Below are positions 1-34,911 of a stretch of DNA of 64,000 nt, one piece after another (within the stretch, counting starts at the first letter, position 1; each line of letters starts with the position of its first letter). The stretch covers positions 32,001 through 96,000 of IMG/VR virus record IMGVR_UViG_3300024239_000016; one strand, given 5' to 3'. The stretch is from a virus. The notes beneath the pieces were generated by a model. It saw only the letters and a program-made list of their open reading frames with translations, was not told where the DNA came from and made no database searches. Position numbers and translations under genes: made by a program.

Positions 1-2079
1 CTTACGGCGGTTAGTTCTGCGGAAACCAAAGCCTTCGTAATCCGGACTATTTTCAATTCCAGAAGAGTCAAAGTTAGCACCAGACATGTAATCGTACAAC
101 TGCTGCTTATTGAGGTTGCCTTCAGAATCAAGAAGGCCAGTAGCCTTTAGTTCGTCAGCATAACCAGCGTTGATTAGCGTCTGCAAGACCATCTGCTGGT
201 GATCCATTTGACCGGAGCTGTTCCTGTAGAGCTCTTGGAATTTGGATCGCTTATCCGAAAATCCATTAGTCTGCAGCGCTTTCCCGCTTTCATCGTAACC
301 AAATTTATTACGGAAAATAGCAGTTAGCTTATCAGCGTCATCGCCAGTAATGCCAGCGCGCAAATATGCATCGGTGTCGGTGTAACGGCGAGCATCGCTA
401 TTCTTCCCATGAATAGAGTCCTCCATTAACAAGTTGAAGAATTTATCACGAGCTTCTCTGGATACATTCGAGTTTTCATCGAATAGATAGTTCTCCAAAG
501 CTTCCTTGTTGTTCGCGATATTGGCACGAGTGCTCTGATTGATTACCTTACTAAAGACGGTGTCCGTCATTTGTTTCTTAGAGACGAACTCATCTTTGAA
601 ATGATCGTAAGTAATCATCTCAACGTTGGTGTTCCCAGTACGCAGCATTGTGAGCTCACGTAACTGACGAGCTAGCAATTCCGGGATTACTTTATTGATT
701 GTCTTGTCGGTCTTAGCCGTATAGATCGCATTCCCTTGTAGGTCACCCACGCCTAGTTTACTAAGCGCTACATCGGGAGACATATTTGGGAAGAGATCTT
801 TGAGCGCTCGTACAAATGGCAACGAATCACCAGCTGTGCTTTCCCTGAAGGCATCAGCGGCCCCAGGAATATCGCCAGCATACCGCAGACCTTCTTTAGT
901 AAAGTAGTGAAACTTCTGTGCGTATTTATTATTACGCAAGAAGTTTCCAACAGGGCTTTTACGTGAACGCTTTCCGAGCTCCATCATGAATTTCTCCATG
1001 ATGCCCTGCCCAGCTTGTTCAGAGAGCATATCGGTCATGCTCATTCCGTCGCCCATACCGGCCATGCTATCCATCATCTCAGCCTGATCGCCAAGAGCAT
1101 CCATCGCCATTGTGCCGGTTTCAAATGCCTCGCGCAACCGATCCATCTTCTCGCTCATGGCGCTCTTGAGATTAGCTCCAAACTTCTCCATGAATTCACG
1201 AGAACGATTACCGACATTATCGAGAGACTTCCCAATAAAGCGATTTCTGACAGCTTCACCGAAACGCTCGCTTGCTCGCAATTTAGCGTACTCAGGCAAA
1301 GCGGTATTCCGCATGATGCCATCAAGGCGCTGCATAGTCTCAGCAGCAAATCTACGTCCGTCATTTAGCGACTCAGCCTGCAAACTCAACATTCGCAAAT
1401 TGATCTCTAAACTCTTACGCTGATAATTGACAGTAACCGAGGTATTGTAGTTATCGATATTCTGCGAGGAGATACGGATGGCATTCAGGTACTTGACAGC
1501 TTCATTGTGCTGAAGCCCAAGCATCTTGTTACCGATTGCTGTCTGAACCAATTGCTGTTGCGCTAATGCAGTTTGAGCTTGACCTTGCCCCATTGCCATG
1601 GCGACTTGATTCTGGAGAGCAAGCTCGCGCAACTCGTCGGGAGACGGCCCACGACTACCATTATCACCTGACGGTAGTTTGGCAGCAAAGGCATCTATCT
1701 TAATGCCAATACCACCAGGTAGTTCCTTACCAATCGCAGGCAGAGCACGCTTAGCGCTCTTCGAAAGATCCCTAAATGCAGGATCTAATTCTTTAAGACT
1801 TTTATCGTATAGATCCCTGGCGACCGAGACGCCTTGGCTGAAAGCACGATCGACTTCCCCGAACTCTCTTGGAAGAGCTTTCAGGATAACTTTCTTGATA
1901 GTTCCGAAACCAGTGAGTGCATTAAAAGCACCACGGAACACACCACGACCTACTTTCGTAATAGCTGAGCGTTCGTCTGCTTTAGGCTCTTGGTACAGTG
2001 AGTCGTAACTTTCGAACTTGAAATCCAAGTCCATGTCGACATCAAAGTTATCCATCGCCATTCGTTCTTTTCTTGCCAT
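1..2079 (-). CDS. Large virion tail protein, phiKZ gp181-like (tape-measure/structural peptidoglycan hydrolase), N-terminal part; runs off the left edge
   Basis: Open frame from ATG 2079 (RBS AGAGGA) to base 1 (MARKERMAMDNFDVDMDLDF...YQRKSLEINLRML...NTALPEYAK). It is absent from the ORF track because no stop lies in the window. Divergent from the vRNAP beta' gene, as phiKZ gp181/gp180 are. Confidence 0.75.
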   Translation of the reverse strand, partial: MARKERMAMDNFDVDMDLDFKFESYDSLYQEPKADERSAITKVGRGVFRGAFNALTGFGTIKKVILKALPREFGEVDRAFSQGVSVARDLYDKSLKELDPAFRDLSKSAKRALPAIGKELPGGIGIKIDAFAAKLPSGDNGSRGPSPDELRELALQNQVAMAMGQGQAQTALAQQQLVQTAIGNKMLGLQHNEAVKYLNAIRISSQNIDNYNTSVTVNYQRKSLEINLRMLSLQAESLNDGRRFAAETMQRLDGIMRNTALPEYAKLRASERFGEAVRNRFIGKSLDNVGNRSREFMEKFGANLKSAMSEKMDRLREAFETGTMAMDALGDQAEMMDSMAGMGDGMSMTDMLSEQAGQGIMEKFMMELGKRSRKSPVGNFLRNNKYAQKFHYFTKEGLRYAGDIPGAADAFRESTAGDSLPFVRALKDLFPNMSPDVALSKLGVGDLQGNAIYTAKTDKTINKVIPELLARQLRELTMLRTGNTNVEMITYDHFKDEFVSKKQMTDTVFSKVINQSTRANIANNKEALENYLFDENSNVSREARDKFFNLLMEDSIHGKNSDARRYTDTDAYLRAGITGDDADKLTAIFRNKFGYDESGKALQTNGFSDKRSKFQELYRNSSGQMDHQQMVLQTLINAGYADELKATGLLDSEGNLNKQQLYDYMSGANFDSSGIENSPDYEGFGFRRTNRRK

Positions 2080-25737: not shown

Positions 25738-27240
25738 ATGCTTCAACAGAATTTACAGGTCCTGGCAAGTGCTCTTGGTCTTGATATTCATTATCTTCGT
25801 GAAAACGGCGGCGATCTCTCACAGCTGAGTGATGGTGACAAGACAAGCCTAGTAGCAGCACTGAACTCATTAAAAGAATACGCAAATTCTTACTTGGATG
25901 GCGTCATTCATGACGCATCTCAGTCGTCAGATCACGCGTACTCATCCAACAAGATTGAAGCCACTATTCAGTCAGCGATTGACCTGATCAAGGTAGGCGC
26001 TCCCGAGGCATACGACACGCTGAAGGAAATCGCTGACTACATCGCTCAAGATCAGACACAGATGTCAGGTATTTTGACATCGATGGAAAAGCTTGTGCGC
26101 TACGATCAGACCATGTCTTTGACTGAGCCGGAAAAGGCAAACCTTCACAACACTCTTGCCCTGGCCATCAGTCAGATTGGCATCGAGAGCATCTACGCCG
26201 GCTTCCAGCCCAAGCAATTCAAAGATGTGGAATTCTACGTTCCTCACTCTCTAGGCGGACGTATCTTCCAGATCATTGGCGATGATGTCTCGCAGGTAGC
26301 TATCGCCAACACATCGACACGTGCCCCGTATCCACCGAATCAGTTCATCAGCACTGAGTTCAGTAGCGATGGCGAGTTCTTCCTCTCGCATGAAGGTTAC
26401 CTGTCCGGTTATCCGAAGGTTCGTGTTGTGGCCCACAAGCGCAATGCCAATGGCACATTTGCAGAAACTGGCTATTACGATAACGTCCTTGCTCAATCCA
26501 TGCTGGCAAGTAAGCAGTATCCAAAGGTCGTCTACAAGCAGACTGCAAATCAAACTCAAAACTGGGCTCAGATCCTCGGCGTTAATGCGATTGATCGCAG
26601 CGATCCAGTTCAGCCTGTTGCAGCCGCCATCCATGGCAAAATGGCAGAAACTCGCGATGGTAGTAAACTAGCTGTCGCTATGGCTAATGGCAGTCTGCAT
26701 ATCCTCAGTGTTACGGATGGCAATCCGATGTCTTTTGCTCAGGCTGGTTCTGTGCCGGCTTCGCAATTCACAAATGCGATTTGCAATAACAGTATGGCAT
26801 TTAGCCCGGATGGCAAGATCCTAGCAGGCGCTTCGCGATACAATGCAACGAAGCAACTGGCTATTGTGGCTACTAGCGGTGGCGATTTTACTCAGCGCGT
26901 TTTACATGCGTTTGATACCGAGCAGGCGCTCCAGCCACGACTCTTCTGGGTTGACTCCAACACCATCGTTGTACAACAGAATACCAACTTGCAATTCTAC
27001 CGTATTCTGTTCGATGGAGTGAATGTCAGCGTGAGTCTCGTCAAGACGCTACCAGTGCCAGTCGGTATGATCATCGACGGCGTGACCGATGACGGCCGGC
27101 ATATCTTCATGCGTACTTTGGCAGGAGGAATGCGAATTCTTCGCCATGTCAGTGATTACCAGTACGATGTTCTTGCCAATATCACCACTGGTCCGACCAC
27201 ACTGGAATTGTCGCACACAAACTCTCGCCTTCTCGATTAA
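25738..27240 (+). CDS. Putative virion fibre/decoration protein: coiled-coil N-terminus plus beta-propeller-like C-terminus
   Basis: DKTSLVAALN, YSSNKI and GAPEAYDTLKEIAD motifs typical of phage fibre proteins; repeated FSxDG blades. Confidence 0.6.
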   Translation: MLQQNLQVLASALGLDIHYLRENGGDLSQLSDGDKTSLVAALNSLKEYANSYLDGVIHDASQSSDHAYSSNKIEATIQSAIDLIKVGAPEAYDTLKEIADYIAQDQTQMSGILTSMEKLVRYDQTMSLTEPEKANLHNTLALAISQIGIESIYAGFQPKQFKDVEFYVPHSLGGRIFQIIGDDVSQVAIANTSTRAPYPPNQFISTEFSSDGEFFLSHEGYLSGYPKVRVVAHKRNANGTFAETGYYDNVLAQSMLASKQYPKVVYKQTANQTQNWAQILGVNAIDRSDPVQPVAAAIHGKMAETRDGSKLAVAMANGSLHILSVTDGNPMSFAQAGSVPASQFTNAICNNSMAFSPDGKILAGASRYNATKQLAIVATSGGDFTQRVLHAFDTEQALQPRLFWVDSNTIVVQQNTNLQFYRILFDGVNVSVSLVKTLPVPVGMIIDGVTDDGRHIFMRTLAGGMRILRHVSDYQYDVLANITTGPTTLELSHTNSRLLD

Positions 27241-27352
27241 GTCGATATTCTATACATCACTACCGGGCAATGCCCGGTAGTGATGTATTTTTTTATAAAA
27301 ACATATTACTTTACTGATTTCCTACCATTGTTAATTTGGGAGAAGCAAATAC

Positions 27353-27733
27353 ATGAACAACCGACGCATTCGTCTCAAATCAATTCGCGCGAAGCTTTAT
27401 AAAGAGAACTGTATTATTCCGACCATAATCAGGAATGGTAAAGTCCTACGCAGAGCTCAACTGCGTTACGCCTACATCGAAAGCCGCCCACGTAAAAACA
27501 ATAAATCAAAACACAAATACGATACCTTTGCACATATCACATGCCCAAGTTGCGATGGCTTTGCTAGTCAGTACCGCTATGCCGAAACCGAAGAAGAACA
27601 AGCATATGAAGAAAAACAAATGTTGAAGCGCGGAGGCATTTTTCCGTATGCTGACATGTACGCATGTCGTGCAAAAATCGGCAATGGTGTATGTAGTAGC
27701 GGTTATAGCAACAAGCGCTATCGGTTTTCTTAG
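27353..27733 (+). CDS. Basic hypothetical protein with CxxC
   Basis: RBS GGAG, CATATTAC upstream, 126 aa. Confidence 0.7.
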   Translation: MNNRRIRLKSIRAKLYKENCIIPTIIRNGKVLRRAQLRYAYIESRPRKNNKSKHKYDTFAHITCPSCDGFASQYRYAETEEEQAYEEKQMLKRGGIFPYADMYACRAKIGNGVCSSGYSNKRYRFS

Positions 27734-27779
27734 TGATTTAATTCGCAGCACATTTATGTGATGTAAAGTAACAAACAAA

Positions 27780-28460
27780 GGGCACCTGCTAATAAACTAT
27801 CGGTAGTCAACGTGGCTGGCTATTAGAAATAATACCACGCTGCGATGGCGTAACGATAGAGTCGAAAGAAGCATAAAACATCTATTCATTTTGGCACGCG
27901 TAAAACCTTAAAAAGATAGATGGGTGAATCTGTTCAAAGTCGGCGAATGCTGCGTCCGTTAGGACACGCTAACGCCGAGCCAAAACAAGTTGTCCTATTC
28001 AGCCTAACCTACCTTTAGTCGGATGTACTTGACCGGTAGTATGGCGGGGATGTAAATGCTAGTTCAGGTAAAACACTACGGTGTAACTAGAATCTCGGGA
28101 GAGATCTAAAGACAGGCATTCTTGTGAGGTGTAGAGAGATGATGGACAGGACCTAAGTCTGCTGGCGATGATGTTTGTCGTTAAAACGAAGTTAACTCGA
28201 TAGTGATATGGATAAATTGCCTATCATGATGACCGTGTTAGCGTAAGGAAGCAGATATGGTAAAGGCGATCTCCGGACTACAACAATAGATGGACATGAC
28301 GCGTGCGTTGCGAGACAGCACAAATCACATACATCTCTGATCGTCGTAAGACGATGTAGTGAGTTTCCTTAAACTAAAAGTGCATCCCAGTGCTGGCCTT
28401 ATTAGCATTGCGTAGCCTGACAGCGTAACAGGTTAATTCTAGTTAAAGAAGAAAGTGCTC
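27780..28460 (+). ncRNA. Large structured RNA containing a group I ribozyme core (IC3/Azoarcus-like), copy A
   Basis: P3 CTGTTC 27930-35/GGACAG 28144-49; P4 TCGGCG 27940-45/CGCCGA 27973-78; P6 GCC/GGT; P7 G(A)GAGAT 28134-40/ATCTCC 28269-74; P8 ACC/GGT; P9 ACTACA 28277-82/TGTAGT 28355-60; no ORF. Confidence 0.85.
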
Positions 28461-28498
28461 ATGGATTAATACTAGGTAATCGCATCCATGACAGATGT

Positions 28499-28583
28499 GC
28501 CCAGGTGGCGAAATTGGTAGACGCACCAGATTTAGGTTCTGGCGCCTTCGGGTGTAGGGGTTCGATTCCCCTCTTGGGCACCA
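28499..28583 (+). tRNA. trnL: tRNA-Leu(TAG)
   Basis: Cloverleaf, anticodon arm CCAGA-TTTAGGT-TCTGG, long variable arm, encoded CCA. Confidence 0.95.
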
Positions 28584-28585
28584 AA

Positions 28586-28673
28586 GGAGATATGGCTGAG
28601 TGACTTAAGGTACTCCCCTGCTAAGGGAGCGTACAGAAATGTATCGTTGGCTCGAATCCAACTATCTCCGCCA
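28586..28673 (+). tRNA. trnS: tRNA-Ser(GCT)
   Basis: Anticodon arm CTCCC-CTGCTAA-GGGAG, long variable arm, G73, CCA; the T-loop starts with C. Confidence 0.92.
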
Positions 28674-28696
28674 AGAATTCAATAGTTGTTTTCATT

Positions 28697-29221
28697 GTGA
28701 GGGATCGAATGAAAAATCGTGTCAGTAAATACTTGACTAAGAAGTGCGCTCTGGAACTGCGTATCGTAATTGAGAATTTCAATTACGATAAAATCACCGA
28801 TGTTCAGCACATGACCGGTGTGACCGGTAGGCTTTGGCAAGCAGTTGGCTCGGAATTTGATGCACTCCAGTTAATTTTAATTGATTTTGAGCTGCTCCCA
28901 GATAACAAAACCGAAGCTACCTGCTATATTTTCGTGAGTATCGGCTACAATCCATCTGATGCTCTGCCCGCGTTACATCAGCTCCAGTTGTTTATTGACA
29001 AATACTCAGCGCGACTTGCCGATACAGACGTAACTCCCGCTAAGCTTCGTATGGATGGGGTATCAAAAGCATTTCGCTTACAAGCATCAAAGCGCGCCGA
29101 ATTTTTAGGTGATAAACTTGACGCCTCTATTTTCTTCAATCCTTTGCGTAAGAAAGTGTTGCGTGTCATTGCGGATGTGCACGAAAACTGCACAGGAACT
29201 CTGTGCATTGAGCTAAAGTAA
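28697..29221 (+). CDS. Hypothetical protein between tRNAs (start may be ATG 28709)
   Basis: 174 aa with protein-like composition. Confidence 0.7.
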   Translation: MRDRMKNRVSKYLTKKCALELRIVIENFNYDKITDVQHMTGVTGRLWQAVGSEFDALQLILIDFELLPDNKTEATCYIFVSIGYNPSDALPALHQLQLFIDKYSARLADTDVTPAKLRMDGVSKAFRLQASKRAEFLGDKLDASIFFNPLRKKVLRVIADVHENCTGTLCIELK

Positions 29222-29226
29222 AGACC

Positions 29227-29300
29227 GCCCCCGTAGCATGAAGGTCGTGCAGTTGATTTGTAATCATCAGGTGACAGTTCGATTCTGTCCGGGAGCACCA
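29227..29300 (+). tRNA. trnT: tRNA-Thr(TGT)
   Basis: Anticodon loop TTTGTAA, T-arm GACAG-TTCGATT-CTGTC, CCA; one mismatch each in the acceptor and anticodon stems. Confidence 0.88.
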
Positions 29301-29328
29301 ATTTAAAATTTCAATCAGGAGAATTACC

Positions 29329-29517
29329 ATGTGGCCAGATCCAGCATGGTACTTCGATGATTTAAGTATTTTCAAATACTGGGTAGATCAATTCTATTCG
29401 ATGGCTTGCAAACTCCGCTCCATCTTTAGCTGGCAGGCTGAAGAGGACCCATCCGTTACTGCCATGACGGAAGACGGTAGCAAGCTCGATTGGAAATTAC
29501 CGCCCCTTCGGGGGTAA
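29329..29517 (+). CDS. Possible small ORF (62 aa) embedded in structured RNA
   Basis: RBS AGGAG plus ATG, but enclosed by a 15/16-bp long-range helix. Confidence 0.4.
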   Translation: MWPDPAWYFDDLSIFKYWVDQFYSMACKLRSIFSWQAEEDPSVTAMTEDGSKLDWKLPPLRG

Positions 29518-29790
29518 TCATCAGAGTACCACACAAACCGGAACCAGTTCCTGTACCGGTAGCTTTAAGCTCAATAGCCTCGTAGGAGGGTGAGGGATAG
29601 TTAATGGGCGCTATATCGACTTTGTCGTGATACCCATGAAATCGGTTAGCAGAGCCGATGGGCGACTTCTGTTAGTATCAAGCGTTGAGGCTATGTTCAG
29701 GATTGTATTTGGGCATTCGACCATCTGTTTTAGATGTCTGGTTCGACTCCAGTAATGATACGATCTAGGGATCCCTTGGGTCCCTATTCT
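29330..29790 (+). ncRNA. Candidate structured RNA upstream of tRNA-Leu(TAA)
   Basis: Helices 29347-62/29516-31 and 29574-81/29687-94; T-arm-like CTGG-TTCGACT-CCAG at 29738-52. Confidence 0.5.
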
Positions 29791-29834
29791 AAAGTGATTT
29801 ATTTTACAATTATTTTAGAATAGTAAACTTTAAT

Positions 29835-29919
29835 CCGCGGGTGGCGAAATTGGTAGACGCATGAGACTTAAAATCTCACACCGAAAGGTATATGGGTTCG
29901 ACTCCCATACCGCGGACCA
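29835..29919 (+). tRNA. trnL: tRNA-Leu(TAA), intron-less
   Basis: Anticodon arm TGAGA-CTTAAAA-TCTCA, variable arm, T-arm, CCA. Confidence 0.93.
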
Positions 29920-29950
29920 TATCTTCTTAATCAACGAAAGAAAGAAAATT

Positions 29951-30298
29951 ATGTCACGTAAAGAACATAAAGGTCAAAAATTCGATCTTGCTTACGGCGT
30001 AGATCGCTATAGTGGGGCTTTCGTTCAGCTCTTCCAATCTCCGATGGACGATCAAGATGGCGCTTTCCTCAACGTGGATTCCCACGGAGTGCGTCTCGAT
30101 GAAGATCATCCCGAACTGCCCACTGAGCTCACCAAAGTGATCTCGGGGCTGAAATTGGCTTTCTGCCGTTATAAGGAAGCTCACAACGATAATCCGAATC
30201 TCTCGGTCGATCATGTGCTGCATGTTGCCCGCGCAGCTGATCAATTCGATACCTTCTCGGAAAAAGAAGTGTATCAGGTCTTTGGCGATAACGCTTGA
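29951..30298 (+). CDS. Hypothetical protein
   Basis: ATG 29951; the ORF-track start lies inside the tRNA. Confidence 0.75.
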   Translation: MSRKEHKGQKFDLAYGVDRYSGAFVQLFQSPMDDQDGAFLNVDSHGVRLDEDHPELPTELTKVISGLKLAFCRYKEAHNDNPNLSVDHVLHVARAADQFDTFSEKEVYQVFGDNA

Positions 30299-30309
30299 AA
30301 AAAAAAAAG

Positions 30310-30877
30310 CATGTGCTCGCTATTGTCTGAATAGTAAAGAAAGCACGGACTTACTGAGTCCGATAGTGAGGCAGTCCTGCATTGTCGTCAGATCAAGGCC
30401 TATTCATGATAGGTACAGTTTGACATCAGACTCTGGCAGTTAGGCTGATCAGAAGTGGAGCCGTGATAGTTCCGGATTTCGCAAAACCCTCAGATTACTT
30501 CTGTGGTCAGATGCGAGAGATGATGGAGTACCAGTGTCGAAGAGTGTGCGAGGGTGAACCTAGCGCTCTTAAACGGTCGACTAAATCAGAACTGATATTT
30601 GGCTATCGGCGATGAGGATTGGTTTAGAATCATGCCAATGTTCGAAATCCAAGTTCAAGGAGTTTATTGGGTAGTGATGAGAGAACTATCCTAGATACGT
30701 TTTCTCATCACTAGAACAGACGACATCCAGGCGAAACTGGGTTAAGTGAACTAGACCCACCAATCCATAGCACATAGGTGAATACGCACTCCCTTAGGTC
30801 TAGAGTGTCAGTAGTTCGCGCGGACTACCTCGACAGCATCGCCCTTGCAAAGCGGTGCTGTCCTGGAAGTGCGCATG
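30310..30877 (+). ncRNA. Large (about 570 nt) structured RNA directly upstream of tRNA-Pro
   Basis: Terminal helix CATGTGC 30310-16/GCGCATG 30871-77; 15-bp stem 30672-86/30699-713; stems 30616-23/30759-66 and 30832-42/30852-62; no credible ORF. Confidence 0.7.
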
Positions 30878-30884
30878 AAATTGT

Positions 30885-30961
30885 CCGTTCGTAGCGCAGC
30901 CTGGTAGCGCATCTGTTTTGGGAACAGAGGGTCGCAAGTTCGAATTTTGCCGGGCGGACCA
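30885..30961 (+). tRNA. trnP: tRNA-Pro(TGG)
   Basis: Anticodon arm TCTGT-TTTGGGA-ACAGA, C1-G72, A73, CCA. Confidence 0.95.
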
Positions 30962-30985
30962 TTCTTATTTTACCAAGAGGTAATC

Positions 30986-31228
30986 ATGCAATCAAACCAT
31001 AAAAAAGATGGCGTTGAAGCAATAAAAGAGCTGATCAAAGAAGTATGGAATACGCTCAAACGGCTTATCGAAGACTGTTTCATTAAACTGATGCAAAAGC
31101 ACATCAGGTGCTCTAGCAAAAAGAATTGGGTAGCGCGCAGCTCAAGTATTTTTTCTTTGGGCGACCGCAAATTACTTGGCATCAGGCGACATACCCCTGA
31201 TCGTTGGCTAGGTTATATTCGGAATTAG
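30986..31228 (+). CDS. Hypothetical protein
   Basis: RBS GAGGT, ATG 30986. Confidence 0.65.
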   Translation: MQSNHKKDGVEAIKELIKEVWNTLKRLIEDCFIKLMQKHIRCSSKKNWVARSSSIFSLGDRKLLGIRRHTPDRWLGYIRN

Positions 31229-31249
31229 TAACATTGGGAGCGGTGTAAC

Positions 31250-31675
31250 ATGAATCTTCATTTCACATCCCCTAGCGTTGGGAGCGATGTATGGATTGTC
31301 AAGGAGGATAAAATCCTTGGCACTGGCGCTGTAGTGGGATTTGATGGACAAGATCGACTGAGTGTGATGTTAAAAGACGCTGCAGCGAACGATCTACTTC
31401 CTCTGACTACCGATGACTTAAAAAGCATTGGTTATGGTTATTTATTTATCGGCTATGATGCGAATACGTGCGATTTACATCGTAATCAGGCAATAGTCGA
31501 TCTTATCAAAGATGACAGCCCTCTAATTGGCACTTCCATTGTTGATAAATTTAAACTCCGCTATGGTCTTGTTAACGACCGTTTCAAAAATGTCCCTGGT
31601 TATCGCGAAGCGTGCATCATGGAAGTCGGCCAGTCATTGACTGAACTACCCCAGAGGTCCTGTGATGGTGCGTAG
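31250..31675 (+). CDS. Hypothetical protein
   Basis: RBS GGAG, 141 aa. Confidence 0.75.
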   Translation: MNLHFTSPSVGSDVWIVKEDKILGTGAVVGFDGQDRLSVMLKDAAANDLLPLTTDDLKSIGYGYLFIGYDANTCDLHRNQAIVDLIKDDSPLIGTSIVDKFKLRYGLVNDRFKNVPGYREACIMEVGQSLTELPQRSCDGA

Positions 31676-32219
31676 AATATTTCAGAGCAGGGATTTACCG
31701 TGGCGTCAGCGTGTTACAATTGTTGTTGTCAACGATAACGGGAATGTCCTCATCGCTAATCAGCCCCCGTTACCGCCTTATAACGAAAAAATGCTGACCC
31801 TACCTGGAGGCGGCATTGAGCCAGGACAGACTCCAGAAGAGGCAGTAGCAGCTGAGCTTCTTGAAGAGGTTGGCGTCAAAGTAAGCGGCATTCAGGTACT
31901 TGACTGTCATACATTCGAAGAGCCGTTTACCGTGCTAAAGCCAGGAGAAGGTACCCCAGTTCAAATCGAGCGTCGCAAGTTGTTTAAAGGCGTACAATCT
32001 GTTGCTTATTTTGCCAAGTTCGAACGCACCATCAATGGTGGTAAAGGCACTGGCAATGATGCAATGGAATGGGAATGGTATCCGTTCCATAGGGCTACTG
32101 GAATAATGCTCGCTCAGCGTGCCCTGGCAATTAAAACTGGAAGAAATGGAAAGCTCCATATGTTCATGGCAGACGCGATCAGGGTCGCTAAAGACCATTT
32201 TTATAAAATAGAAAGCTAA
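31662..32219 (+). CDS. Nudix hydrolase with a divergent Nudix box
   Basis: LPGGGIEPGQTPEEAVAAELLEEVG. Confidence 0.85.
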   Translation: MMVRRIFQSRDLPWRQRVTIVVVNDNGNVLIANQPPLPPYNEKMLTLPGGGIEPGQTPEEAVAAELLEEVGVKVSGIQVLDCHTFEEPFTVLKPGEGTPVQIERRKLFKGVQSVAYFAKFERTINGGKGTGNDAMEWEWYPFHRATGIMLAQRALAIKTGRNGKLHMFMADAIRVAKDHFYKIES

Positions 32220-32249
32220 ACTGCTCGCTAGTATGAGCGGGTGAAGCTT

Positions 32250-33230
32250 CAATTAGGGCATTACCGAAAAATACGCTGGTAGTAGTGAAGAGATTCTTGT
32301 ATCGATGACAGATAGCTGTCGGTATTTCCGTGTCATGGCGGATAGATCAGCGAGTACTTTACACGGAACAGCGTAACCGAAAGGCGGTAAAACAACACCA
32401 TGAAAGCGGACATCCGCGCGCACATGTGTAGTACCGGTCATACAGACCGGAACGAGCTACTCTGACGCGATGGAAAAAATGGGCTGCCATAGTGGAGAAC
32501 TCTTAGTAGTGTTTAGGATAGCTGTGAGACAATGAAGCTCAGTCGCCAGGTTGAGTGGAGTCATCCTTGAAATAGCAGCCATAAACGGAGTTCAGTTGAA
32601 TGCAGTGTGATGAATCGTACGCCGCGTGGCCAGGCGATGAAATCACATTCCTCGGAAAGTCGGCGAATGTTTGATGTGTAAGGCCGTTGGGTCTCCGTGA
32701 GAGCGGAGACTGGAACAAGGTGAAACGGCGTTGAGTCGTCAGTGCTAAACTAACGAACAACGAGGCTGGGTCGAAAGATGCCGCTTACTGGATGTTCGAA
32801 TCGTCCCACAATACTAACGCCGAGCCAAGTCTGTGTGATCCGTAATGGGAAAATCGCCTCTGTAAAAAAGTCCAGTGTGCGAGGATGCTGTTGCGAACTA
32901 TCAGAAAGGTGTAGAGAGTAGACCCGAGGGACCTAAAACAATTTGTCGATAATAGCTATTGGATCACTTCATCGCGCGCCGCGGGGTGTTGGTCTAGTAA
33001 CAGGTAGCTTAGATGGGTTGTCATGGTAGAGGCGTATTCCAGACCACAAACAAAATCAGGGCTCCTAAAGAAAGAGTAACGCCTGTTTCTGGTAGTGAAA
33101 ACTATAGTGGTAGGCTTCCTAAGCCTGTATCTCCTGTTCTAGACATAGGGGATGGTTTCTTCAATAGAAGCAGTACCACGAGATAATATCGGTATTCTTA
33201 GATACTATCGTAAAACTCGTGCACAAAGAG
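32250..33230 (+). ncRNA. Very large structured RNA containing a group I ribozyme core (IC3/Azoarcus-like), copy C; ends approximate
   Basis: P3 CCTCGG 32650-55/CCGAGG 32924-29; P4 TCGGCG 32660-65/CGCCGA 32818-23; P6 GCC/GGT; P7 G(A)GAGTA 32914-20/TATTCC 33035-40; P8 ACC/GGT plus ACAATTT/GGGTTGT; P9 ACCAC 33043-47/GTGGT 33107-11; no ORF. Confidence 0.87.
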
Positions 33231-33237
33231 TTCAGTA

Positions 33238-33325
33238 GGGGGTTTGGCAGAGCGGTCGATTGCACTGGTCTTGAAAACCAGCGATGGGAAACCATCCGTG
33301 AGTTCGAATCTCACAGCCCCCGCCA
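33238..33325 (+). tRNA. trnS: tRNA-Ser(TGA)
   Basis: Anticodon arm CTGGT-CTTGAAA-ACCAG, long variable arm, G73, CCA. Confidence 0.96.
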
Positions 33326-33330
33326 ACAAA

Positions 33331-33875
33331 GGAGATCTGATTGCGAAGTCTTGGTCGTAAAGTTTTAATTCTTACGGCCTCGTGTCTTTTGGCAGCTACG
33401 TTTCCTCTTATCGTTTTTGGATTAAGCAACAAAGCTCAATCTGTCGTATGCTTACCGTCCCAGTTAGTAGGACTGGATAACAGTAGTTCAGTACGGAAAG
33501 CAGATAGCTGGTTAAGTGATGTTGATGAACAATCGGCACGCCTTGCCGATCCGCAGCGCCCTATCAGCGCATATAACCCAAATCGCCTAAGAGCTAATGC
33601 AAGACATGGTAAGGGACCATGAGTCTGCACCCAAACTACACCAGGTCACGTGTAAACACTCACAAACAAATACCACTCGTGTGGTAGAGCGTTAGAAGCT
33701 AAAGCTATGGTAGCCGAAGATGATTGTGGATCGTACATCGAACATAATTCCTGATCAGAGTTACGATCGATAAGATGCGACCATTGAAGACTCAGAGCCA
33801 ACCAACGATTACGCTATAAAGAAGCAAAGGATTTATCCGAGCGCACTGTGTCGCATTAAAGGTGGATCCGACAGT
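33331..33875 (+). ncRNA. Candidate large structured RNA directly downstream of tRNA-Ser(TGA)
   Basis: Long-range pairs 33352-59/33776-83, 33406-13/33768-75 and 33382-88/33601-07; many local hairpins; followed by a 13-bp hairpin at 33881-33910. Confidence 0.55.
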
Positions 33876-33975
33876 TTCAATTGCAGACTGAGAAAGCTCT
33901 CAGTCTGCAATCCAGTTTGTATCTTACCGTGTACCAACTGGATTGCACGACTGTGTAAAAGTTAGATAGAGATAA

Positions 33976-34185
33976 ATGCCAAAATTTACTTTACATCAGT
34001 ATAAATTAGTCAATTGCTCTTTAGCTAAAGCTCTTGGCGACAACAGCGCTAAAACCGTAATTGACCTTGCAAGAGGTCGAGTGTGCCCAATTTGCCATAA
34101 TTATAAAAATGGCGGATGCGCGGCTTCTCGTAAATTGTTGGAGTTAAGAATGAACAAAAAAATTAACGACGAGATCCCACTGTAG
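33976..34185 (+). CDS. Small hypothetical protein with CxxC
   Basis: 69 aa, CPIC. Confidence 0.5.
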   Translation: MPKFTLHQYKLVNCSLAKALGDNSAKTVIDLARGRVCPICHNYKNGGCAASRKLLELRMNKKINDEIPL

Positions 34186-34241
34186 CGTTCAGCGAGAATG
34201 CCAAAAGATAGTCTTTTGGACGCTGAGCGCGGGAGAGAATC

Positions 34242-34496
34242 TTGTCCAGATCACTGCGTGTGTATAAAACCAAAGTTAAGAAATTGGCTAGGTTAAAAAG
34301 GATTACTGCCAAGAGTTACGCTGCCATCGGTTTTGTAAAGGTAAACGTTCTGTTACAGACTCCTAAAATCTGTAGTTGTCATATGTGCGGCAATGCAAGA
34401 AAGCACTATAGGCGCCGCACGCTTAAAGAAGAGCGCGACCTTGTTGATTACAAGGAGCAGCTTAAGAGCCTTTCGTTGATCCCTTCCTACAGGTAG
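34242..34496 (+). CDS. Small basic protein with TPK-x-CSCxMCGNxRK motif
   Basis: Motif recognised from small phage/bacterial proteins; TTG start after GGGAG. Confidence 0.65.
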   Translation: MSRSLRVYKTKVKKLARLKRITAKSYAAIGFVKVNVLLQTPKICSCHMCGNARKHYRRRTLKEERDLVDYKEQLKSLSLIPSYR

Positions 34497-34499
34497 ACT

Positions 34500-34805
34500 A
34501 ACTTGGGTGATTGTAGGAGTAGCCCAAAAATAAGCCGTAACAAGCTGGGAAGAAAACCCAGTACCATTTTAGCGAATGGTGAGGAGTGTTACGGAGCCAT
34601 GATGAGTTATTTTAACCAACGACCAATCAGGATTCTCGAATCTAAATGCGACATATGGCCTTAGTGACATCATAGCGGCTGACCACTCGGCAATATATGG
34701 CTGGCCGGCCCGGTCCCTGGCGCGATCCGCGAGTGCTCGCGGATATCCGCCGCTGCCGACTTGTTGCAAATAGATGGATCCAGATGTAACTCAATATTGG
34801 TGTAC
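34500..34805 (+). ncRNA. Candidate structured RNA (about 300 nt)
   Basis: Stems 34535-42/34587-94, 34604-10/34786-92 and 34687-92/34754-59, hairpin 34725-44; followed by terminator hairpin 34808-31. Confidence 0.5.
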
Positions 34806-34911
34806 CGCAGCACGCCCCTAGGGGCGTGCTGTAGTTAATTTATTTTTTATTTATTTTAGAAAATTCTTTTATTAATTTTTAATAAAAGAATCTTTTATAA
34901 GGAACAAAATC

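Follow-up and report, generated by a model that had tools for sequence, protein, structure and literature searches.

A group I ribozyme of the tRNA-intron type without exons and with a putative substrate hairpin in a phage tRNA array

Positions 27780-28375 of the window probably make up an entire IC3-type group I ribozyme, which interrupts no gene and carries its own substrate in cis as a hairpin at its 3' end. The window is the whole stretch of 64,000 nucleotides that was analysed; it covers 32001-96000 in an IMG/VR virus record of 194 kb that is about 73% complete. The RNA, called element A in the following, has no exons, and its internal guide sequence (IGS) matches a triplet in the 3' hairpin. 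From these two properties together we infer an exon-less, intron-derived ribozyme with a pseudo-substrate in cis. Observed are the homology of the core, the covariation of the helices, the lack of exons and a match of IGS and triplet whose register is fixed.

Almost all genes of the window are encoded on the plus strand, as is A. An ORF-poor island extends from 27734 to about 34900 and contains six tRNA genes. Its first ORF-free stretch, 27734-28498, is the region of A and is bounded by the stop codon of a 126-aa ORF on the 5' side and by a complete tRNA-Leu(UAG) gene (28499-28583, plus strand), which directly follows the 3' tail of A. Just 5' of the small ORF preceding A a strong hairpin resembling an intrinsic terminator (17 bp and a T-run) is located at 27252-27288, after which a new transcription unit probably starts. 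Splicing as an extension of the ORF 27353-27733 was considered and rejected, as the gain would be two codons only. A second element, B, which is a paralogue of A, lies at about 32256-33125. Two more ORF-poor parts of the tRNA island (30310-30877 and 33331-34900) match neither Rfam nor the intron model R1 described below. A blastn comparison with phage GenBank entries gave no match, and the neighbouring proteins, used as bait, did not lead to related phages.

Model R1 was built from an alignment of 26 tRNA introns confirmed by ARAGORN. Its matches in the window are A, with 64.6 bits and E 4e-20, and B, with 59.9 bits, and no others; a search of the whole 194-kb record returned the same two places. 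The conserved core of IC3 group I introns, P3 to P9 with J3/4, J4/5, J6/7 and J8/7, is present in A. According to the R1 alignment P3 (CUGUUC 27930-35/GGACAG 28144-49) encloses the P4-P6 domain, so that the unit spans 27930-28149 and includes J3/4 (AAA), P4 (27940-45/27973-78), a small P5 (27952-69) and P6 (27980-28131) with an insertion of about 130 nt. The G-binding helix P7 (GAGAU 28136-40/AUCUC 28269-73) encloses P8 (28158-63/28250-55), which has an insertion of about 85 nt and the CCUAAG/UAUGG receptor motif, and J8/7 (28256-68). P9 (ACUACA/UGUAGU, 28277-28360) contains internal branches and a GUAA-capped P9b at 28340-55, a layout that recurs in L041, L039 and B. The minimal P5 and the large insertions of P6 and P8 had already been described in the initial annotation, and we find both insertions (27980-28131 and 28158-28260) to be free of credible ORFs. 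The G-binding site of A reads GUAG-A-GAGAU/AUCUC-C and, compared at the sequence level, has the same first two pairs as all relatives. The G-C pair that binds guanosine, the A-U pair next to it and the bulged A in front are retained while P7 covaries.

A and B share exact core blocks and their single-stranded core joints are identical. The catalytic core (J4/5, J6/7, J8/7 and the G-binding pair) is the same in both elements though the helices differ, and the sequences of P3, P7 and P9 have diverged with pairing maintained in both. Their 5' halves were misaligned by MAFFT because the insertions occupy different arms. In the 5' domain of B, 72 nt (32510-32581) are scored by Rfam as positions 2135-2206 of bacterial 23S rRNA, the L1-stalk region (50.4 bits, E 5e-12). 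This segment has its own closing stem, GGCUGC/GCAGCC, and may, as a mimic, bind ribosomal protein L1. At the other end of B, ARAGORN with relaxed thresholds calls a weak tRNA-Arg(CCT) at 33083-33156, whose anticodon arm is the 3' hairpin of B and whose other arms are poor. The corresponding idea, that the tail of B is the 3' half of a tRNA-Arg(CCU) with an acceptor strand pairing to 32559-65, was dropped, since it relies on this relaxed call, in which the acceptor stem contains four G.U pairs and the D and T arms are weak.

The core blocks of A and B are present in 53 viral contigs. Several of these are assigned to Intron_gpI by Rfam, and in the intron mode of ARAGORN many of the loci sit in tRNA anticodon loops. 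Rfam, both at the gathering threshold and at E up to 10 (26500-34500), makes no group I call for A or B. RF00028 run on the whole record missed both elements as well, and it does match compact relatives; ornate group I copies of this kind therefore escape standard annotation. Covariance models of the GIR1 lariat-capping ribozyme, GOLLD and ROOL found nothing at E up to 10 over 26500-34500. Strict patterns specific for A and B had 0 matches in the viral contigs, a scan of metagenomes gave only compact tRNA-Leu introns and chance matches, and a genome scan with the P3 pattern gave only compact tRNA-Leu introns and chance matches in coding sequence. In four soil metagenome contigs (L131, L063, L125, L141) the P4 motif TCGGCGAA is repeated two or three times on the 5' side of the intron core, with a spacing of about 250 nt in L131 and about 500 nt in the other three, which may reflect tRNA-Leu(UAA) genes with introns arranged in tandem.

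The IC3 subfamily to which A belongs has a large additional 5' domain; it was drawn from the IC3 loci and three further pattern scans and is found only in viral contigs. The consensus pattern of this domain has 0 matches in 185,579 prokaryote genomes and seven in viral contigs. A was aligned with 12 relatives. Six members of the subfamily are introns of 563-703 nt that end in GUGGUACG at the exon boundary. The host gene is tRNA(CAU) for L016 and L147/L212, tRNA-Leu(UAA) for L148 and L150, and tRNA-Arg(UCU) for L152. The sixth, L052 (6288-6871, minus strand), has no surrounding tRNA; its own flanks form a 13-bp hairpin in whose loop it sits, an arrangement that may represent a half-way stage between a tRNA intron and an exon-less ribozyme. 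As side features, the intron of L152 carries in P5 a tRNA-like insert with the motifs GTTCAGTTGGTAGA and GGGTTCGAGCCCC (L152:6915-7000), and the P6 insertion of an exon-less member, L226, contains two T-arm-like modules, GTGGTTCAACTCCAC and GCGGGTTCGATTCCCGC (1263-1330, minus strand).

In the true introns the terminal triplet of the 5' exon is followed after 9-25 nt by the matching 3-nt IGS, CACC, a 4-nt strand of a helix named hX, an A-run, and P2 onward; in the tRNA exons of L016, L148, L150, L152 and L147+L212 the last triplet matches the own IGS. The subfamily order is IGS-CACC-ACCG-AAAAA-P2...YCGAAAGR-CGGU...GGUGAAU-P3, and A aligns base for base with the 5' layout of the true introns. 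Its IGS, GGG at 27780-27782, corresponds to the GUG or GAG of the tRNA introns, which pair with CAU or CUU 5'-exon ends. The extended 5' domain of A comprises about 150 nt. CACC 27783-86 pairs with GGUG 27923-26 and closes the domain (27783-27926); the sequence CACCU/GGGUG, tried as a P1, is this conserved helix and was rejected. UGCU 27787-90 and AGCA 27870-73 form hX (27787-27873), P2 (27797-27859) is a hairpin of CUAUCG 27797-802 and CGAUAG 27854-59 with a GAAA tetraloop at 27826-29 and a pair probability of 0.99, the mini-hairpin UC-GAAA-GA (27862-27869) shows the YCGAAAGR motif conserved in the family, and the hairpin P2.1 (CAUCUAU/AUAGAUG) occupies 27879-27922.

A helix table of 11 members reveals compensatory changes in hX, P2, P3 and P7, and the pairing CACC/GGUG occurs in 10 of the 11. 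Helix hX reads ACCG/CGGU in eight members, UACG/CGUA in L052 and UGCU/AGCA in A, and P2 reads UGCACUG/CAGUGCA, UACGCUG/CAGCGUA and others in the relatives. When the 5' domain (27780-27929) is folded alone it forms exactly the family helices, with a z-score of -2.87, the domain-closing helix in the centroid fold and the GGG of the IGS unpaired.

Seven members of the subfamily are exon-less: A, B, L039, L226, L036, L149 and L153. The intron search of ARAGORN found no split tRNA and no tmRNA at A, with thresholds at default and relaxed, and it found nothing for the other six; as controls, 71 of 73 intron-bearing tRNA-Leu genes and the true introns of the subfamily of A were recovered. No Rfam family was found in the flanks of A at E up to 10. 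Within 45 nt 5' of the GGG only two UUU triplets (three G.U pairs) and none with a C could serve as partner of an upstream P1, in contrast to the true relatives, which have exact IGS-matching triplets 9-25 nt upstream. The failure of the initial annotation to find a U-G P1 by eye is hence borne out, and its suggestion that a cis 5' exon is lacking is supported. In L036 and L153 a GGU also occurs 16-18 nt 5' of the IGS, and a conventional 5' splice site is thus possible for these two. The intron end formed by GUGGUACG and the following exon is altered in all seven. G28363, predicted earlier as the terminal G, lies at +3 after P9 and aligns with the terminal G of the true relatives; among the exon-less members a G at this position is kept in A, B and L149 and lost in the other four. 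The core tree is poorly resolved, and the seven exon-less members do not count as independent lineages; with 148 columns it is too short to decide between a single and a repeated loss of exons.

A tRNA intron that has lost its host tRNA and drifts without function would also have no exons, a variable terminal G and a sequence which, like those of A and B, is no longer recognised by the general group I model of Rfam. Such a decaying relic is nevertheless very unlikely. The seven exon-less copies come from different phage contigs and keep every core helix by compensatory changes, the IGS/triplet match occurs in one register in all of them, and a tightly packed phage carries two diverged copies, each with large additions.

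The initial annotation had proposed that the sequences on either side of the core pair and close it into one unit, the flanks being halves of a small structured RNA. The pairings themselves are real: GGGCAC 27780-85 pairs with GTGCTC 28455-60 (6 bp, one G.U), and TGCTAATAA at 27787-95 is the exact reverse complement of TTATTAGCA at 28399-407. Positions 27780-95, however, align with the IGS, CACC and hX in true introns, where the 5' splice site is situated 9-25 nt further upstream, and are therefore ribozyme and not exon. What had been taken as the 5' flank is the IGS with the first helices, and ARAGORN finds no split tRNA or tmRNA around the core. Since the 5' strand of the 9-bp helix is inside the ribozyme and overlaps hX, the long-range helix would have to displace a conserved local one. 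Both partner strands on the 3' side belong to a tail specific for A (28376-28498), which has no counterpart in the relatives and also holds a hairpin at 28460-90. Folded alone the tail is no better than shuffles (z -0.63).

Conservation of the pairing in homologues, which the initial annotation itself had named as decisive, is not observed. The pairing is absent in B, L036 and L149, where equivalent segments show chance-level complementarity, and is impossible in L039 and L153 because only 7-10 nt separate the 3' hairpin from a tRNA; the enclosure of the core by its flanks thus fails by this measure. A Watson-Crick run of at least 9 bp between a 20-nt 5' segment and the 123-nt tail arose in 6 of 1000 shuffled tails, and with a 5' segment of 65-67 nt the count was 28 in 1000 shuffles and 65 in 2000. 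For GGGCAC a partner of 6 bp, with G.U allowed, was present in 340 of 2000 shuffled tails (17%). The 6-mer is therefore at chance level, while the 9-mer is real and somewhat unusual (0.6-3%) and, being rarer than chance, may have a meaning in A. The mean pair probabilities in the RNAfold ensemble are 0.33 for the 9-bp and 0.16 for the 6-bp helix. Forcing both helices gives -214.3 kcal/mol against a minimum free energy of -216.3 kcal/mol, a cost of 2 kcal/mol, and the family helices score worse in this nested energy model (-209.9 kcal/mol).

That the two sides are exon halves of a small RNA which pair around an intron and are joined by splicing is the least probable of the explanations we weighed. 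The rarity of the 9-bp complement, the small energetic cost of both helices and the position of L052 in the loop of a 13-bp flank hairpin speak for it; they are outweighed by the alignment of 27780-95 with intron sequence, the two UUU triplets as the only offer to GGG within 45 nt upstream, the absence of the pairing in five exon-less relatives and a tail in which Rfam finds nothing at E up to 10 and whose fold is not above that of shuffled sequences. The pairings of A with its tail are A-specific and in competition with conserved helices; at most they represent an inactive alternative conformer, in which the 9-mer may sequester hX.

The initial annotation overlooked a different contact between the two ends. 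Each of the seven exon-less members has a small hairpin 0-2 nt behind P9, and a strict complement of the member's IGS, ending in U, is found at exactly +7 to +9 after P9 in all seven and in none of the five true introns tabulated. The terminal U of the triplet forms a wobble pair with the first G of the IGS. Two classes occur, GGG/CCU in A, B, L039 and L226 and GCC/GGU in L036, L149 and L153; the hairpin stems differ in all seven and the loops have 4-7 nt. In A the hairpin AGUUU/AAACU (28362-28375), which begins one nucleotide past P9, displays CCU 28367-69, and the P1-like helix of GGG 27780-82 with this triplet contains the wobble U28369.G27780. As far as can be judged from the sequences, the helix of IGS and triplet is the only 5'-3' contact conserved in the family, and its fixed register is the signature of a P1 with a built-in downstream substrate and not of an intron. 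The pairing is short (3 bp), the CCU of A lies in a loop of 4 nt whose closing A-U pairs have to open, and the isolated 3' hairpin has a very low probability in the full-length nested fold. A pairing like P10, between +10 to +12 and the nucleotides 5' of the IGS, was inconsistent between members and was discarded.

The contact could also be a structural lock without chemistry. The IGS and CCU would then dock a pseudo-substrate that holds the fold shut, and A would be a stable scaffold RNA with its function in the peripheral insertions, P6 and P8 in A and the L1-stalk-like module in B. The loss of the terminal G in four of the seven exon-less members would suit a scaffold, as would peripheral domains that are large and different between the copies and the 72-nt rRNA look-alike of B (50.4 bits). 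The U.G wobble, which is recognised in group I ribozymes when P1 docks, would be read by a lock too. A mere scaffold would not need a whole catalytic core that is identical in A and B, and we consider this explanation unlikely.

Highly improbable in our opinion is a ribozyme acting in trans, whose IGS would recognise a cellular tRNA by its anticodon loop (CCU for tRNA-Arg, GGU for tRNA-Thr) with the cis hairpin as decoy or autoinhibitor. The ancestors did recognise anticodon triplets, and the hairpin of B, a 5-bp stem with the 7-nt loop UUCCUAA, has the exact geometry of the tRNA-Arg(CCU) anticodon arm. Three base pairs, however, give no specificity in trans, the loops of 4-7 nt are mostly unlike anticodon loops, and the fixed +7 register argues for a contact in cis.

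For the preferred reading, an exon-less ribozyme with its substrate in cis, the following course is conceivable. The hairpin triplet CCU would dock on the IGS in the active site, and the linker between +3 and +7, three nucleotides long, could allow P1 and the G position to dock together. A bound exogenous guanosine would then attack after U28369, and the cut would free the ribozyme from the downstream tRNA transcript. A would in this case be a self-processing RNA and not an intron. The reading predicts GTP-dependent cleavage after U28369 which is rescued by swaps of IGS and triplet. More tentatively, and with some doubt, the exon-less members can be seen as a phage family of free-standing RNA enzymes derived from tRNA introns, which would use their own substrate hairpin and guanosine to cut or circularise themselves out of a tRNA operon transcript and whose enlarged arms would be cargo modules, such as the L1-stalk mimic of B.

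IC3 group I introns are known from the anticodon loops of bacterial and phage tRNAs, such as Azoarcus tRNA-Ile(CAU) and cyanobacterial tRNA-Leu(UAA) (PMC13168695, PMC3984707). A resembles them in its core blocks (J3/4-P4, P4'-P6, J6/7-P7-P3' and J8/7), its P8 CCUAAG/UAUGG receptor motif, its GNRA-capped P2 and P9b and a 3-nt IGS that is read against a triplet ending in U. It differs from them in that it has neither tRNA exons nor an upstream 5' splice site, in that the matching triplet is downstream, 6 nt after P9 and in a hairpin, and in that it has an additional 5' domain (about 150 nt) and extensive additions in P6, P8 and P9 and is missed by RF00028. With the tRNA introns of its own subfamily (L016, L147/L212, L148, L150, L152) A shares the 5' domain and the core, but it is not located in a tRNA gene and lacks the end formed by GUGGUACG and an exon. 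In the literature we found no description of exon-less tRNA-type group I ribozymes in phages.

In twin-ribozyme introns the GIR1 or lariat-capping ribozyme, whose core is rearranged and lacks the classical P1 and G site, makes a 3-nt lariat (PMC2219692). Like GIR1, A is derived from group I and is itself no intron, and it would process the adjacent RNA; unlike GIR1 it keeps the classical core and is not matched by the GIR1 model of Rfam at E up to 10. An allosteric group I ribozyme together with a c-di-GMP-II riboswitch is present in an mRNA leader of Clostridioides difficile, where it splices two exons under control of the ligand. A would be comparable as a group I ribozyme used in RNA processing and not in the repair of a split gene, whereas no aptamer is seen in A. 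GOLLD, ROOL and the theta ribozymes are large or catalytic RNAs beside phage tRNA genes, and A shares their setting as a structured RNA without ORFs within the tRNA array of a phage; it has a group I fold and no match to them in sequence or structure (Rfam). To our knowledge group I ribozymes are found almost only as introns. If our reading is true, the conserved exon-less lineage with its built-in substrate would be the second natural recruitment of a group I ribozyme to another job, after GIR1, and would bring a self-processing RNA into phage tRNA operons.
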